DNA of 61,731 nt, filler included, from Dirinaria sp. TL-2023a (Eukaryota), in NCBI GenBank assembly GCA_051941275.1. It is 9 parts of 9 records of this genome, joined end to end, with 100 filler letters (N's around TTAATTAATTAA, not from the genome) between each part and the next. Parts side by side here need not be neighbours in the genome. Positions count along the whole stretch, not along the records: positions 54,989 to 61,731 come from JAVEBF010001425.1; 8 more parts are not named here. The stretch is one strand, 5' to 3'. Positions 6,793-61,044 of this stretch are shown piece after piece. Within the stretch, counting starts at the first letter, position 1; each line of letters starts with the position of its first letter. A model generated the notes under the pieces. The model did not search any database, had not been told where the DNA came from, and worked only from the letters and a program-made list of their open reading frames with translations. Both the position numbers and the translations under genes were made by a program.

Positions 6793-6892
6793 NNNNNNNN
6801 NNNNNNNNNNNNNNNNNNNNNNNNNNNNNNNNNNNNTTAATTAATTAANNNNNNNNNNNNNNNNNNNNNNNNNNNNNNNNNNNNNNNNNNNN
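6793..6892. other. Artificial contig linker (N44-TTAATTAATTAA-N44)
   Basis: Exactly 100 nt, six-frame stop core, identical at 8 sites. Confidence 0.98.
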
Positions 6893-13683: not shown

Positions 13684-13783
13684 NNNNNNNNNNNNNNNNN
13701 NNNNNNNNNNNNNNNNNNNNNNNNNNNTTAATTAATTAANNNNNNNNNNNNNNNNNNNNNNNNNNNNNNNNNNNNNNNNNNNN
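13684..13783. other. Artificial contig linker
   Basis: N44-TTAATTAATTAA-N44. Confidence 0.98.
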
Positions 13784-20570: not shown

Positions 20571-20670
20571 NNNNNNNNNNNNNNNNNNNNNNNNNNNNNN
20601 NNNNNNNNNNNNNNTTAATTAATTAANNNNNNNNNNNNNNNNNNNNNNNNNNNNNNNNNNNNNNNNNNNN
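20571..20670. other. Artificial contig linker
   Basis: N44-TTAATTAATTAA-N44. Confidence 0.98.
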
Positions 20671-27456: not shown

Positions 27457-27556
27457 NNNNNNNNNNNNNNNNNNNNNNNNNNNNNNNNNNNNNNNNNNNN
27501 TTAATTAATTAANNNNNNNNNNNNNNNNNNNNNNNNNNNNNNNNNNNNNNNNNNNN
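27457..27556. other. Artificial contig linker
   Basis: N44-TTAATTAATTAA-N44. Confidence 0.98.
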
Positions 27557-34328: not shown

Positions 34329-34428
34329 NNNNNNNNNNNNNNNNNNNNNNNNNNNNNNNNNNNNNNNNNNNNTTAATTAATTAANNNNNNNNNNNNNNNN
34401 NNNNNNNNNNNNNNNNNNNNNNNNNNNN
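34329..34428. other. Artificial contig linker
   Basis: N44-TTAATTAATTAA-N44. Confidence 0.98.
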
Positions 34429-41197: not shown

Positions 41198-41297
41198 NNN
41201 NNNNNNNNNNNNNNNNNNNNNNNNNNNNNNNNNNNNNNNNNTTAATTAATTAANNNNNNNNNNNNNNNNNNNNNNNNNNNNNNNNNNNNNNNNNNNN
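41198..41297. other. Artificial contig linker
   Basis: N44-TTAATTAATTAA-N44. Confidence 0.98.
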
Positions 41298-48044: not shown

Positions 48045-48144
48045 NNNNNNNNNNNNNNNNNNNNNNNNNNNNNNNNNNNNNNNNNNNNTTAATTAATTAA
48101 NNNNNNNNNNNNNNNNNNNNNNNNNNNNNNNNNNNNNNNNNNNN
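48045..48144. other. Artificial contig linker
   Basis: N44-TTAATTAATTAA-N44. Confidence 0.98.
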
Positions 48145-54888: not shown

Positions 54889-54988
54889 NNNNNNNNNNNN
54901 NNNNNNNNNNNNNNNNNNNNNNNNNNNNNNNNTTAATTAATTAANNNNNNNNNNNNNNNNNNNNNNNNNNNNNNNNNNNNNNNNNNNN
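54889..54988. other. Artificial contig linker
   Basis: N44-TTAATTAATTAA-N44. Confidence 0.98.
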
Positions 54989-55274
54989 GTATTAAATCCG
55001 TGCCTCGAATGATACAGAATCAATTAGGCCATTTACTAGAATTAAACATGATCGATCTGGATAGGAAGACTTTAAAAGGCGTTCAAGCTTTGATGGAAAA
55101 GAGAGAACGGCGCATGTGAGTAGTAGTGACTCTGGTCGTTTTTCTTCTTCTGCATACTCGAGAGGTTGATGCAGGGAGAAATATCTTTTGGAGCCGCTAT
55201 ATAGACACGGTCTGTCCTTCGTTTAAATTTCATGATCAGACATTATTCTAACGATTAAAGCTGAGGTTCTGAAT

Positions 55275-55653
55275 ACACTCGTCGAAGTCAAAAGTTCTCA
55301 TTGATGAGATCATCGTCTCTTGCAACTCGCTACTGTCGCATTTTCACTGCATGATCGGGCGAAAACCACTAGATCTGAACTGGGATGATCAGAAGTCACA
55401 GGACATGGTAAACAAAAACTCGATGATGGTGAAGTTCATGAAGATACTTCAAGCTTACGTATCACGCTTGAGTGAGTGATGAACACACTTATCATCTCCG
55501 GAATCTAACAGATTTATAGAAGAAAGTGACTTCATTGGTCAGAAGGCCTGCAAAGTTTACAAGAACGGAGACTCAAATAGTGTAGACTTTACGATCAGCT
55601 CTTTGATGTTTGGGAGCATAAAAGAAGGTTGCGAGATGAAGGGCTTCTCTTAG
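55275..55653 (+). pseudogene. Degenerate 3' gene fragment, possibly a fungal transcription-factor C-terminus
   Basis: SCNSLLSHFHCMIGRKPLDLNWDD...RL, intron GTGAGT..CTAAC..TAG, final exon to TAG 55653; stops immediately upstream. Confidence 0.35.
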
Positions 55654-55701
55654 AAGTGGATAGGTGAACGGCTTGGAAGGACTGGGATAGAAATCATGAT
55701 G

Positions 55702-57115
55702 TTAAAGCGGATTCATATCTTCTGCATGCTGAATGAACTCTTTTACCGCCTGTGTCACTTCGTCATGAATCTCCTCAACAGATCCGTCTCCGTTGATCTG
55801 CGATACGAAGTCAGCTAATGCTTTGCCCAGGTTTACTACCTGCGTACCTCCTTGAAATAGCCCTCCGCTGCCTTCAAGTGATTCTTCACTTCTGCGTTCC
55901 AAACCTGAAAGACTTGAATTCTCTTTATAATGTCATGCTCGTCACCAGCCTCACCTCCCGGCCTTCCTAGACGCTGAAACATCCCCTCAGCCGAGCAGTT
56001 GAGAAGCAGAGTGTAATTTGTTTTTTGCACCTACCGGATGTAAGCAAGGGTTTTTATTTACGTGGGTAAGACTAACCTTCTCTTCAAACTCGAGAAGTTC
56101 TTGTATGCATTTCGAAAACCCGTGTACGAGGCCCCACTTCTTGCCTTCCTCTATTTCTTCATTGATCTTTCTCTCAAGTAAGCTGATTTTCAAATTTCTT
56201 GGAACATCGACCTTTTCCTCAAGGCAATCTTTCACGAATTCTACGTGGGGATACGTTTGATCGTCAGACTTCTCACGTAAGACATCGTCTAAGGATATGT
56301 GCTGAAACCCAAATTTCTGGCATAGAAGAGCGCATAGTGTCTTCTTGTCAATTCCGGGGGCGCCTGTATCGCAGTTAACACCAGGGATTAGTGAGACCGA
56401 AAGGATATATCAATGAAGAAGATTATAGGAATTCGCCGTTTTCGCTTTGAGAAGTGGGCCTGTCTCTCCTGCTGTAACAATTCTAACCAAGCTTTTCTCT
56501 CAGCAGAGCTGATTTTTGATGATAGTTCCTGAAATTCTTCTAGATTCTTCTCCCCGAATGTCTTTTGCTCGTATTCATACGCTTGTACCATACACTCAAA
56601 TTTGTCCATATCTCGTATAAATCGAGATTCCGCTGTCTTGCCTTCTTCATACTCTAGTCAGGCGGTCCTAATCTTTGTCCCTAGGGTTGGCTTGATTGGG
56701 TTCAACAAGCTCTGAATGTATCGGGTACCAACGTCTTCCAGCTTGAACTTATGCTCTATCATTTATTAGTCTGAGTTGGACGATCCGAAGAAGGTACATT
56801 TACCTTTAGTAACACCAGCATATGTGGGGATGTCTCCGACAACTGATTCTGCCATATCGTGGCATAGTGCTAGAAATATACACTTTCCTATATCCAAACC
56901 ATCCTGCTATACATCAACGAACGCAACTTTGACAGAAATATTGAACAAACCGGAGCGAACATAGTCAGAACTGACAACCGATACATGTGAGCAGCTACAC
57001 TCTCAGGGTTCTTGATCGTTCTCAATCACCCAGTTCGTGGCAAGTGCTTGAGGACCTCTATCAAATGTAGAAAGGGCAATGATGACTCTTCTAATTTGGA
57101 ATGAACTACTTTCAT
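55702..57115 (-). pseudogene. HD-domain 5'-deoxynucleotidase (HDDC2/YBR242W-like) fused to an adenylate/UMP-CMP-type P-loop kinase; six exons, inactivated
   Basis: MKVVHSKLEESSLPFLHLIEVLKHLPRTG*LRTIKNPESVAAHMYRLSVLTMFAP|DGLDIGKCIFLALCHDMAESVVGDIPTYAGVTK|EHKFKLE...IRTA*LEYEEGKTAESRFIRDMDKFECMVQAYEYE...IIFFI|GAPGIDKKTLC...FGFQHISLDDVLR...LVHGFSK...TLLLNCSAE...|INGDGSVEEIHDEV. TGA at 57028 and 56660; intron-3 donor at 56410 reads AT. Confidence 0.88.
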
Positions 57116-57383
57116 ATTGTCTAAGAATGTTGGAAGAAATGTTCGCTAGATATCGCGACTTAAAAGGACGACGGAGGGGATGCGTTGATTTCAGACGAGC
57201 TATTAACGGCTGTAAGTTTATCCGACCCCGCACGTAGCTTCCATCATTAATGGGATGTGGATTCTTGAGTAGTACACAGCTGCTTCTAACCACTCATAAG
57301 TCGGCCCACGTTAAAATGCACCCCCTATTTCTAATTCTAGAAGGGTCGGCTTTTGGGCGATTAGGAGTAGGTCATAAGTCTTA

Positions 57384-58246
57384 CCCCTGTATTCAAGTTC
57401 GTTGCGAAACTAGTGATTTTTGCGCAAAATCGACAGCCCCGACACTGAAATAATTCACCCCCCAATAGCGTAACAATCACAATGTGAAATACGTTCAAAA
57501 TTGAATAAATTAGAGTATCTAATACTAATTTCTATTTGCGAGATTTTTACGAAATTTCTAACGTTATTTAGTAGGTAATATTAGAGAGGGGGAAATTTCG
57601 AGAAACTGATATATTTACAGTGGTAAAAAGAGCTATTTCTGGAATAACTTCTCTATTTTTAATAATTTAGATTTAAAACTTAGAATGATATTAGATCTAT
57701 TTCTAAATAATCTGATCCTTTAATTTTAAAAGATTCTGGCTTAAGAAGAATTAGAGGAATTCAAAAAAGTCTGAAATTCTACCTCGTCTTGGCGAGGTTC
57801 GAATAAGCCGAGGTAGAATTTTAGCGGGGAATTCGAATTCGCGCTTTTAATATTAATTCGGTATTATTATTATTTCTAAAGCCAGAATTTCTTAAGATTT
57901 TAAGAGATTAAAAAGCTTTATAAATACTCTAATCTATTCAGTTTTTTTTAAATATTCGAAGTAGTTAAAGAGATATTAGGAAATTTAGCGGTTTTCGTAC
58001 TGAAAATCTATCGAAACTGAAAAACTTTTTAAAGCTTAGCGTTCAATTACTTTAATTAATGCGATAAAAAGCGAGGAAATAGAAATTAGTATTAGGCGCT
58101 TTAATGTATCTGATTTTGAACGTTTTTCACGTTGTGGTTGTTGCGCTATTTGAGGGTGAATTATTTCAAAAAAAAAAAAAAACAGTGTCGGGGCTGTCGA
58201 TTTTGCGCAAAAATCACTAGTTTCGCAAGCAATCTGAATACAGGGG
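57384..58246. mobile_element. Non-autonomous Tc1/mariner-type MITE/foldback element, 863 bp, TA target duplication
   Basis: TA|CCCCTGTATTCA...TTGCGAAACTAGTGATTTTTGCGCAAAATCGACAGCCCCGACACTG... matched by its inverse ending TGAATACAGGGG|TA; TIR similarity over ~150 bp; AT-rich interior with no transposase ORF. Confidence 0.9.
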
Positions 58247-58644
58247 TATTTTGGCTCGGCACTAACACTGACCGGTTTGGAGTTTTTGTTAACAGTCTTT
58301 CCTTACTCTTGTCAACAATCTTTGTGATCTTCTATTATTTATCTTGCGGCATTGTGGGTCTGAAACTATTGAGGATGTGATGAAGCAATAGCGCTGAGAG
58401 GAGTTGTAACTGATGATGCTCCATGATCTTCTTCGTCAACAATCGAGAGCTGTCTTATAGCTCTTTCGAGCATCCACTTTAGGCTTTTGATTCGGGATCC
58501 ACAAGAGGATGCCCTCAATCATTCAAGAGTGTGCCGCGATGTTAAGTATACGCTGCAACCTCTTTTACAATTGCTTTCCTTTGCTCCCTCTGCTAAGAAA
58601 CAACAGCCGTTCTATATTATCCAGAGTGACCCAAGTGCCCTGTC

Positions 58645-59277
58645 ATGAACGCTTCGTCGGAGACTATAGATATCATGCTTTCACCTGATATATCGAAACT
58701 TCATATCGCCATGAGCGACTCACAAGACAGCGACGCAAGTCCTCCGACCCGTCGTGACCGTGGACGTGAAGGGAGTCCAGAGGCACCCCGAACCGCAAGG
58801 AGCAGGAAAAGTGCTGACGGCCGTGTGGCCTTTCATGGCCCCAAGATTCAACGGCAAGCGATGATTCATTCAATCTTTCGTCAACGTCTTGGATCTGACA
58901 GAGCAGACAATATTGGTGCTCTGGATGATCGGATTGCAAGGCATGAGGGGACAACGTCATCTTATGAGGAGCTGCCTCATCGGCTCAGAATATCTAAGAA
59001 ACATCAATCGATGACATCGTCAGAACGAGTGATGAAGCTCACTAAGACAAATGACTTCTTACTACAGAAGCTAGCATATCACAAAGACACTCGCGCAGCT
59101 GAGATGAGGTTCTTGAAGAAAGTCATCAAGCTTCGTGCAGATATAGAAGGTGCCTTGGCAGACTTCGATCGCGCTCTTGAAGAGAGGTCGAAGGCTCGAG
59201 CAAATGCGGAATCCATTCTGTTGAACTACTGAGGCATTGATCTAAGAGACGGAAACATCGAAGACAGCATTTTTTAG
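58645..59277 (+). pseudogene. Coiled-coil hypothetical protein with a premature TGA at 59230
   Basis: 195-aa ORF ending ILLNY*; the frame continues GIDLRDGNIEDSIF* to 59277, consistent with an original YWGID (TGG->TGA). Confidence 0.55.
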
Positions 59278-59894
59278 TGTCTCTTCTGCTACGAAAGGGA
59301 CATCATATCAAGCTTTGAAGAGTACAATCTTGTAGACTATTTGCTGCATTCACTAAGCGTACATCTCATCAAAGCTGGTTGCCAAAGTCTCTATACCCAA
59401 ACCCAGATCCCCCACTCAGCGATTTAGCGTATTTGACTACTCCTATAGGGACTTGGGAGTGCGGATGACAACGCATATGCTCTGCAGGAAGCCTGCTGTT
59501 GTTGAATCTAGAACTGATACCTCGGAACAGCTGACCATTCGCTGCCCGAACCTATGCCCCTGTCTCACTTTTCTACACATTTCCAAAAACGTCCTTTTTC
59601 AGCAGATTGATAGTCCAGTTCGAGCAGTGTTATTCTGTCTAGACGGGACTGCACAAGATCTCGCACTTCGTCTCACATTTGTTCGTTTGCGGATACTAGG
59701 ATATGTGAGTTCATTGCTCGAGAATATGGGTCCAAACTTATCAGTGACAAGCGTGGTCTCCCCCGCATCAGCTGATCGAGGGACCAACCGATCATTCAGG
59801 AATTTTGATAGATCGATTGTGCCTTTCTTGTAGGTGAGACGGCCGTGTCTGCCCACCGTCAGTCTCCGTATCACTTCTAGAAGAATCATAACTT

Positions 59895-60389
59895 TACTAT
59901 CGACCCAACTAATTGACCTCAAGCGCTGAACAATCTCGACTTTGTAACGCTGACTGCATTGACGACAGCGTGACACAGATCGAGAAGAACGAACAAGGCT
60001 TCGATCGAAGCATGGATCCGCCGATAGTTAATGATGAAAAGACCTAACATATCGCTGGCGAAGCTCAGGTGATAGCCGAAGTACGAAGATATCATGTGAA
60101 TCAGTGACAAAGTCCCCGTCCGAGTATCTAGCTCTCTGATGAAGGATACTTCAAATATGCTACAGAATATATTGACGGCTAGGTAGAGAAGGTGCAACAA
60201 TACTTGCTCTCGAGTGCATGATCCGAAGAAGCGGTGCCGCCGCAGAACGTTGGGGTAGAGAAAATGCTTCACGAGCAATACGCTGTAGGGTTGAAGAAAT
60301 CGGACGAAAAAGGACGCGGCGACTCTAATCACCAGCACTAAACCGAAGATAGCTTCGGCGATAATTGCGTATATCTGATTTACGTCCAT
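59895..60389 (-). pseudogene. Ferric reductase-like transmembrane protein N-terminal fragment (Starship-associated FRE type), hypermutated and truncated
   Basis: MDVNQIYAI...KHFLYPNVLRRHRFFGSCTR...YLAVNIFC...RTGTLSLIHM...HLSFASDMLG...YRRIHASI...LCHAV (paired heme-ligand-like His); stop and intron-like GTAAAGT follow; no FAD/NADPH domains downstream. Confidence 0.7.
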
Positions 60390-61044
60390 AACTTTCAGTA
60401 ATATGAATTAGTTGAACATCATCATTTGAGGTTAAGGCATGACTGCTGATTTGTACTTGACCGAAAGGCATTCAGTTCTGAAGACATCCACTTCTGACGC
60501 CATCGAGGCGAGATTTGCTATCCGAATCCTTTGATATGCACAGCCCGCTTTTGACGTAAAGAAGATGTATCATAGATCAAGTACTATCCGTCGACGAAGG
60601 ATTCAATTTTGGATGCGGCGTTCAATTGTGACTCCATCAAATGCTGACTCAAACTCTTGCGGCACGGGACAGCGCCATTAATCGCGACGTTAAATAGATT
60701 CGAGCAGGTTGCATGCATCTTTGCATCTACTTCATGACGATTCAACGAAGTGATCGACGCGCGGTACGTGAGAAGTTTCGTAAACGAAGTTCAAGCTGAT
60801 TTAGAAAAGGAAATGAGCTGGCGCTGATGACAGAAGCAGACATCTACACAGTCATTCGTCATGACAATAAATACTATACCTACAAGTCGATCGATCGACC
60901 CGAATGGCCTCCATCGGAGCAAGATCTTGTGAGCCGATCCCAAGTCGCAATAATATATACCGCTCATGAGTTGTCTGTCAGATAAATCTCATATCACTCC
61001 TCTTTCGCCGATGTTCTAAAGACTTTGAGACAATGAACGAAGAG

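Follow-up and report, generated by a model that had tools for sequence, protein, structure and literature searches.

The window analysed here is a stretch of 61,731 nucleotides (nt), filler included, from Dirinaria sp. TL-2023a (assembly GCA_051941275.1), and at positions 55702..57115, on the minus strand, it holds a whole pseudogene, from start to stop codon, in which an HD domain is followed by a kinase-like domain, as defined by the gene model, Pfam and the relatives. The gene copy is dead and makes no protein. With fair confidence we take the locus to be a recently inactivated copy in a family of the Pezizomycotina, in which an HD nucleotidase is joined to a non-catalytic nucleotide-binding partner, with an inactivation that fits C-to-T-type decay. 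The dead copy points to a family of such fusions with two branches, here called A and B, with the present copy belonging to branch B.

The gene begins with the ATG at 57115-57113 and ends with the TAA at 55704-55702, and six exons, separated by five introns of 44-50 nt, give a read-through frame of 392 codons as first joined. Exon 1 (57115-56951) holds the N-terminus of the HD domain, with LPRTG[W>stop] and the histidine of PESVAAHMYR, and exon 2 (56906-56804 as first joined) the HD motif CHDMAESVVGD. Exon 3 (56755-56411) completes the HD domain, crosses the linker and enters the kinase fold with its first strand, RRIPIIFFI, so that it contains the junction of the two domains. Exon 4 (56363-56077) carries the P-loop and the nucleoside monophosphate (NMP)-binding part of the kinase-like domain, exon 5 (56030-55848) the core strand LLLNCS with a short LID region, and exon 6 (55797-55702) the C-terminal strand and helix, INGDGSVEEI, with the TAA stop. 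The introns run GT..AG in four of the five cases, with intron 3 beginning with AT (56410-56409). It is noted that a sequence-only reading of the window had placed a gene with five intron-like gaps at just these coordinates, which proved exact. Comparison with the relatives moves the acceptor of intron 1 by three bases, to the AG within 'CAG', and therefore exon 2 spans 56804..56903 (its start being 56906 if the first AG is used) and the product would have 391 amino acids (aa).

The motifs that had been quoted for the two domains are all found when the exons are joined by their coordinates and translated with X for each stop: LKHLPRTG[X], PESVAAHMYR, HDMAESVVGD, [X]LEYE and DKFECMVQAYEYE on the HD side, and IIFFIGAPGIDKK, FGFQHIS, LLNCS and INGDGSVEEI on the kinase side. 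The HD metal ligands, H..HD..E..D..D, are present in the read-through translation. The Walker A motif GxxGxGK[ST] is broken in this copy, reading G-A-P-G-I-D-K-K-T with Asp in place of the third Gly, and the region of the GFPR motif reads H-G-F-S-K. The Pfam profiles expected of the two halves match even the raw, unspliced fragments: three of these match HD_3 at expectation values (E) of 7.2e-4, 1.7e-7 and 1.6e-7 (19.9, 31.7 and 31.8 bits against a cut-off of 22.5, so that the first falls below it), a fourth, in exon 4, matches ADK at E 3.9e-10 (40.5 bits, cut-off 26.8), and AAA_17 matches a raw fragment at E 5.1e-7.

Two separate adjacent genes can be ruled out, since the boundary between the domains falls within a single open exon. 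The open frame 56657-56391 (89 codons) runs from the last part of the HD domain through the linker into the first kinase strand, and alone it matches fused proteins at E 5e-58 with 85-86% identity; a single gene rather than two neighbours therefore bridges the junction, as the sequence-only reading had held. When the junction exon was searched, 14 proteins were obtained at E <=1e-3, 12 of which have both PF13023 and PF00406, so that intact fusions do exist, and among 240 fetched proteins 102 contain both halves in the order HD then kinase, as judged with custom hidden Markov models.

The inactivation was checked by aligning to the gene eight related DNA copies from metagenome contigs. There are two in-frame TGA codons, one at 57026..57028 in place of the conserved Trp30 codon, which is TGG in seven of the eight copies (GAG in that of locus L009), and the other at 56658..56660 in place of the conserved Trp122 codon, the W of WLEYE, which is TGG in all eight. 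The donor of intron 3 (56409..56410) is AT where all eight copies have GT, and the third P-loop glycine (56347..56349) is GAC (Asp) where all eight have GGC. All four defects are private to this copy among the aligned relatives, all four are G>A changes on the coding strand, and the earlier statement that this copy is dead thus stands.

Could the gene nevertheless be alive, with the four defects being errors of assembly or DNA damage, or with TGA being translated, whether by readthrough or as a Trp codon? The assembly to which the contig belongs is fragmented, and all three of its stops, the third being a TGG>TGA change at 55117-55119 in the neighbour gene, at a codon for Trp in relatives, are TGA at Trp codons. 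Such a pattern is also what decay would give, because with G>A as the main change only the Trp codon yields a stop. In addition, the same copy has a dead donor, the Gly>Asp change in the P-loop and 20 G>A among its 47 private changes. The other eight contigs of the window have uninterrupted standard-code frames of 679-910 codons, showing that errors are rare and that TGG is the Trp codon in use, from which widespread sequencing error or a TGA=Trp code is rejected. A nuclear code with TGA for Trp is not known from Ascomycota. A living gene is therefore extremely improbable in our view.

The private changes, defined as sites where one copy differs while at least four others agree, also reveal the mode of decay. 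This copy has 47 of them, among which, on the coding strand, there are 20 G>A, 9 C>T, 7 A>G and 3 T>C, giving 29 changes of the C>T/G>A kind as against 10 of the T>C/A>G kind. By contrast, the intact copy of L019 has 23 private changes with only 4 G>A and no C>T, that is, 4 C>T/G>A versus 9 of the reverse kind. At the protein columns that are invariant in five close relatives, 9 of the 14 replacements specific to this copy arise from G>A. The defects, together with the nonsense codon of the same kind in the neighbour gene, are in line with a C-to-T-type mutational burst in a redundant copy. This resembles the repeat-induced point mutation (RIP) of duplicated fungal genes, to which the excess of 29 of 47, the existence of related pseudogene copies and the many transition-rich copies in sequencing run X5 correspond, and we call the decay RIP-like, with a reservation over sequence context that is given below. 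A broken copy with a classical RIP signature was observed elsewhere, at L014:2841-4168, which is the same as L015:221-1548: 13 of its 23 private changes are C>T, and 11 of these 13 are CpA>TpA, with three Gln>stop changes included.

The fusion is widespread. The best matches of the junction exon, 83-86% identical, are from four Teloschistaceae and Psora testacea, all of them lichen fungi, and a profile built from seven fused proteins gave 99 proteins at E <=1e-20. The family reaches five classes of the Pezizomycotina, namely Lecanoromycetes, Dothideomycetes, Eurotiomycetes, Leotiomycetes and Sordariomycetes, with intact fused proteins of 374-405 aa in all five, and its distribution looks patchy, as had been anticipated. 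Among 1.84 billion representatives there were 164 matches at E <=1e-30, many of them being multi-kinase proteins matched by the C-terminal half only. The proteins bear various automatic names (5'-deoxynucleotidase, P-loop NTPase, adenylate kinase, uridylate kinase, ybr242w-like, cytidylate kinase, HD domain-containing protein 2), and in the literature searched, mostly at the level of listings, no study of an HD/NMP-kinase fusion was found. Thus the fusion family is annotated in many public fungal genomes yet unstudied, so that of the earlier description as hidden and undescribed the second word holds in so far as a study is meant, while the first does not. Among the sequencing runs no RNA run was listed, and none contained more than 0.20 of the sampled words; contigs from four runs were compared with the gene, and none of its four defect sites is among the 40 of 401 differing places that were tabulated.

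At the DNA level, 30 metagenome loci encode relatives, and the exon model was projected onto 18 of them. Intact six-exon genes are present in L001-L005 and in L021/L022. In L019/L020 the reading frame reaches the stop, but a short internal segment is deleted and the projected length is not a whole number of codons. The genes of L012 and L026 look mostly intact, on alignments too loose for certainty. Stops, frameshifts or a deletion interrupt the copies of L008/L009, L013 and L014/L015, and the frame breaks in L025 are either real or an artefact of a 72% alignment. It is also observed that the gene models P0003-P0006, P0008 and P0009 of lichen fungi start at a Met inside the HD motif (MAES...), with some of them reading through intron 3 or 4, so that exon 1 and the catalytic residues, His and Asp, are missing from them. 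Such public models look like annotation errors.

Both halves correspond to known folds. The closest solved structures for the HD half are yeast YGL101W (5yox, 1.9e-38) and human HDDC2 (4dmb, 9.6e-31), and for the kinase half yeast uridylate kinase (1uky, about 1e-21). The AlphaFold model of the relative P0007 has a mean predicted local confidence (pLDDT) of 93.1 and a predicted template modelling (TM) score, pTM, of 0.87. In Foldseek its HD half matches 4dmb with a target-normalised TM-score of 0.90 and a root-mean-square deviation of 1.4 A, and its kinase half matches UMP-CMP kinase and AK5 (7e9v, 2bwj) with target-normalised TM-scores of 0.85-0.87, while no solved entry in that search covers both halves of P0007 (query-normalised TM-score <=0.43). 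The N-terminal half thus resembles HDDC2, yeast Ygk1 (YGL101W), YBR242W and Escherichia coli YfbR in sequence and fold, including the H..HD..E..D..D ligands in 26 of 26 family members compared, but the known members stand alone with about 200 residues, whereas here a kinase fold continues in the same exon. The C-terminal half resembles UMP-CMP kinase (Ura6, CMPK1) and the short-LID adenylate kinases in its fold, P-loop, NMP-binding region and short LID.

It is in the kinase half that the family divides. The residue table comprises 26 full-length proteins, 13 of branch A and 13 of branch B, and the six columns of HD ligands are filled in all 13 of each. In branch A all the canonical kinase residues are retained, with GxxGxGKGT, the Asp-GFPR and the arginine of LLR in 13 of 13. 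In branch B, by contrast, the P-loop lysine is present in 5 of 13, the Arg of GFPR in none (A, 13/13), the Asp before GFP in 1 and the Arg of LLR in 8. The differences of branch B from UMP-CMP kinase are the change of GFPR to GFPE, GFPK or GFPD, the loss of the preceding Asp and probably of the 'GR' arginine of the LID, the change of GKGT to GKKT with the lysine gone in 8 of 13, and the reduction of some members to half-domains, with only about 110 residues of the kinase half kept. In pairwise alignment to yeast Ura6, GFPR becomes GFPE and the Arg of the LID 'GR' becomes Asp, the first LID Arg being kept. The Pfam scores agree: ADK gives 57.7 bits for P0007 as against 103-119 bits for branch A and finds no match in the branch-B members P0176 and P0200, while HD_3 gives 115.3 bits for P0007. 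A standalone HD_3-type gene was observed head to head with a fusion gene having a kinase-like half of about 110 residues in three loci (L016:5639-6636, L017:5707-6704 and L023:234-1124, all on the minus strand), where it adjoins the shortened fusion gene.

The two branches can occur side by side. L009 holds, on the same contig and about 6 kb from its broken branch-B copy, a second fused gene, of branch A (L009:16349-17953, minus strand), with a canonical kinase half (GGPGVGKGTQC, GDLLR, DGYPR, SGRIDDN; ADK 93 bits) and with frame breaks at places homologous to all five introns, as judged by eye. Branch-A proteins are annotated in many Pezizomycotina, and A and B also occur together in Blastomyces percursus, Exophiala oligosperma, a Cadophora isolate, Paraphaeosphaeria minitans and Colletotrichum fructicola. 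In the tree of HD halves A and B form one group (Shimodaira-Hasegawa-like approximate likelihood ratio support, SH-aLRT, 99), a clade of their own apart from eight standalone fungal HDDC2 proteins, with B supported at 96 and A at 87. In the tree of kinase halves B forms a group with a long stem and a support of 100, and the same support separates A and B together from the 18 kinase domains included from other eukaryotes. Likely, as judged from these sequences and trees, the fusion arose once and was then duplicated into A and B.

Based on these residues, branch A is probably a true nucleotidase-kinase. A working NMP kinase in branch B is unlikely, because key catalytic and phosphate-binding residues are gone, with the roles of the lost residues as known from adenylate and UMP-CMP kinases. 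When intact copies are compared, the ratio of nonsynonymous to synonymous substitution (dN/dS) ranges over 0.13-0.42 in the HD half and over 0.20-0.40 in the kinase-like half, and therefore both halves, including the kinase-like half of branch B despite its residue loss, are kept by purifying selection. A nucleotidase paired with a pseudokinase thus describes the branch of the present copy better than two opposing enzymes do. The contrast of opposite chemistries that had been drawn for this gene fits the sister branch A with its canonical kinase and is unlikely to fit branch B.

We propose that the product is a single polypeptide of about 390 residues, with an HD 5'-(deoxy)nucleotidase of the HDDC2/Ygk1/YfbR type followed by a UMP-CMP/adenylate-kinase fold. 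In an intact branch-B protein the HD half would dephosphorylate (deoxy)nucleoside monophosphates, most likely those with pyrimidine bases. The kinase-like half would no longer phosphorylate, with the residues that once held or transferred the NMP phosphate having been replaced, and it may bind nucleotides and in this way modulate the HD half, either by sensing them or by holding the substrate. The 5'-nucleotidase activity is inferred from the family, and so is the preference for pyrimidines, because the Trypanosoma brucei homologue of HDDC2/YfbR is most active on dCMP, dUMP and dTMP (PMC5098729). According to the same source, a nucleotidase of this type and a kinase serve one deoxypyrimidine route in T. 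brucei, and the tandem thymidine kinase of that organism has an inactive N-terminal domain. The latter resembles the fungal fusion in that a catalytic domain of nucleotide metabolism is joined to a domain of homologous fold whose activity is lost; the domain families are different, and the likeness would be a functional analogy only.

Several points weigh against the reading of the locus as a C-to-T-decayed copy with a non-catalytic kinase half. The context of the G>A changes is GpG in 14 of 20 and the classical TpG of RIP in 3 of 20, and the RIP indices over the gene are mild, with TpA/ApT 0.77 and (CpA+TpG)/(ApC+GpT) 1.21, below the usual thresholds; in both respects this copy is unlike a classical RIP product. 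The dN/dS of this copy versus its relatives, 0.18-0.37, is no higher than that between intact copies, which fits recent death without proving it. Both trees lack standalone HDDC2 and URA6 proteins from Pezizomycotina, and therefore a single origin is likely rather than certain and the fusions may be extra paralogues; the branching apart from the housekeeping genes that had been expected thus holds with respect to the 8 fungal HDDC2 proteins and 18 kinase domains included. Because A and B are hard to align in the LID region, it is uncertain how many LID arginines have been lost. The word non-catalytic for the kinase half of branch B is a statement about residue loss alone, and the nearest relatives, in Lecanoromycetes, retain the P-loop GxPGxGKKT and the LLR arginine, so that branch-B proteins might bind ATP and perhaps transfer phosphate to an unusual acceptor.

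This last point leads to the alternative that intact branch-B proteins are truly bifunctional, with the kinase-like half active on a changed acceptor such as an unphosphorylated nucleoside or another small molecule. The retained P-loop and arginine of the nearest relatives speak for it; the lost residues are mostly those binding the phosphate of the acceptor, as would be expected for an acceptor without phosphate; the fold is confidently kinase-like, and the domain is under purifying selection. Nevertheless, the P-loop lysine is gone in 8 of the 13 full-length branch-B proteins and the Asp before GFP, which holds the Mg-bound water, in 12 of 13, and several members have half the domain only. 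A single catalytic function shared by the branch is hard to reconcile with such losses of residues and of domain, and we thus regard bifunctionality as rather unlikely and a nucleotidase with a pseudokinase partner as the preferred reading of branch B.

For the genomic context of the gene, the make-up of the window has to be considered. It consists of nine contig pieces, ordered by size from 6792 down to 6743 nt, and its 16 runs of 44 N are paired around TTAATTAATTAA, forming eight artificial joiners of the form N44-TTAATTAATTAA-N44 at 6793-6892, 13684-13783, 20571-20670, 27457-27556, 34329-34428, 41198-41297, 48045-48144 and 54889-54988, the last standing directly before the contig of the gene. 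Since the window is a chain of separate contigs, neighbourhood across a joiner carries no meaning, and the genuine genomic context of the fusion gene is therefore 54989-61731 only. The housekeeping genes elsewhere in the window are uninformative on this context.

Within this contig of 6.7 kb, 37 frames have at least 55 codons, and a Pfam scan of the 24 of them that lie outside the gene gave no match to DUF3435, a transposase or a recombinase. At one end lies the 3' part of a neighbour gene (54989..55251, plus strand), cut by the contig end, which belongs to no Pfam family. The same gene is found beside the fusion in L010, L012, L019-L022, L024 and L027, tail to tail in most loci, and in inverted orientation in L001-L005 (for example, L021:11928-13479, minus strand, and L001:7512-9141, plus strand). 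This synteny extends to loci where the fusion protein and the P0007 query share only 41-42% identity. A scan of 12 frames of the neighbour gene, drawn from four loci, matched no Pfam family at E up to 1, and the ESM Atlas gave no usable match. The neighbour gene may be a functional partner of the fusion.

Other features of the contig are as follows. Upstream of the gene there is a conserved block of about 35 nt, lying 80-120 nt 5' of the ATG (approximately 57196..57232, minus strand) and near-identical in all seven aligned copies, with those of L009, L011, L013, L014, L019 and L021 having it at the same place. The homology between copies begins just upstream of this block, which is a candidate promoter or 5' untranslated region element. 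Farther upstream is an element resembling a miniature inverted-repeat transposable element (MITE) at 57382..58248, with inverted ends of about 170 nt that are 79-94% complementary and an AT-rich core (GC 0.27). It sits in a stretch, about 57302-58250, that stands in place of about 75 nt of L009/L014; neither the window nor any of the 30 loci contains a second copy, and a clean target-site duplication could not be read. An open frame of 200 codons on the plus strand (58630-59229) has a weak match to bZIP_2, below the cut-off (E 0.0054, 17.2 bits), and is without homology to any of the 30 related loci. Scans of the contig for tRNA and with Rfam found nothing, and an RNA gene that had been considered at a conserved segment of 60-70 nt near 55000-55067 was rejected, these scans being empty and the segment being coding sequence of the neighbour gene.

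Some branch-B proteins (P0054, P0078, P0226 and P0227) have an N-terminal helical extension, from residue 1 to about 130-190. In the ESM Atlas its neighbours, at a feature score of 0.92 and TM-scores of 0.57-0.63, are the SesA/PigL_N domains known from fungal NLR proteins, which we treat as a lead only.

It had been suggested from the sequence that the gene lies in mobile-looking, accessory DNA, and in this way that a mobile element may carry it as cargo, or that it may be an accessory conflict module by which nucleotide pools are remodelled or depleted, with the present locus being one decayed copy. There are observations in its favour. On the gene, run X5 has 57 contig pieces, with up to seven contigs at one place, and the changes relative to this copy (C>T 105, G>A 108, T>C 37, A>G 26) give a multi-copy, RIP-like picture. 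Under a single metagenome prefix, JAABUI, there are three distinct decayed copies (L008, L013 and L014), the last with its C>T changes in the classical CpA context. L013, and L014/L009 when compared with L019/L021, share just a unit of about 1.5 kb, reaching from about 150 nt 5' of the ATG to 10-70 nt past the stop. Since the introns in this unit are 80-84% identical, the flanks of orthologous loci should align, but they do not. The MITE-like insertion upstream of the gene, the copia gag described next and the SesA/PigL_N-like extension can be added. On the other side, the scans of related loci (ten loci, 85 and 115 frames) contained no DUF3435 and, as the sole element match, a copia gag adjoining the gene in L019. 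With no DUF3435 in these frames or in those of the contig itself, the idea of a fusion inside a DUF3435-captained element found nothing to sustain it, although a Starship is possibly far larger than a contig of 6.7 kb, so that its absence is not shown. The same neighbour gene across distant loci indicates that the two genes are a stable pair on the chromosome, the clades of A and B are tidy, and both halves are under ordinary purifying selection. Pfam finds no family, SesA included, in the extensions of the four proteins even at E 10. Lichen metagenomes may mix several fungi and Logan contigs of one run give no copy number, so that copies per genome are not established. In sum, a location in mobile DNA is weakly supported, the accessory nature read from the joined contigs loses its support with the joiners, the lack of DUF3435 and transposase matches and the synteny of the neighbour, and the cargo or conflict-module explanation is in our view unlikely.

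A more specific form of it would be that branch-B proteins are accessory, copy-variable effectors of conflict or nonself recognition, in which an HD half that drains the nucleotide pool is gated by a nucleotide-sensing pseudokinase, rather than housekeeping enzymes; in some lineages they would be wired to a SesA-like N-terminal domain, and in lichen-forming fungi they would be duplicated again and again as the 1.5-kb unit and silenced by RIP. We hold this to be very doubtful. If it is true, the dead copy here would be one casualty of a turnover of duplication and silencing in lichen-forming fungi. The analogy to conflict modules is a low-probability lead. It is also noted that fungal viperins are reported to associate with CMPK1-type kinases (bioRxiv 10.1101/2023.09.13.557418); a link to them was dropped, there being no radical-SAM match among the frames scanned in the ten loci.

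We thus return to the reading of the locus as a recently dead member of a family in which an HD nucleotidase is joined to a pseudokinase partner. The dead copy alone is of little weight; it points to a two-branch family of HD-nucleotidase/NMP-kinase fusions whose members occur across the filamentous ascomycetes, with lichen fungi, pathogens of plants and black yeasts among them. Labels such as 'cytidylate kinase' and 'adenylate kinase' are misleading on proteins that are probably unable to phosphorylate. Branch A would unite in one protein both opposing reactions at the pyrimidine (d)NMP node, and in branch B a kinase seems to have become, in nature, the non-catalytic partner of a phosphatase. 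If this is true, nucleotide pools in these fungi may be regulated through a built-in sensor.

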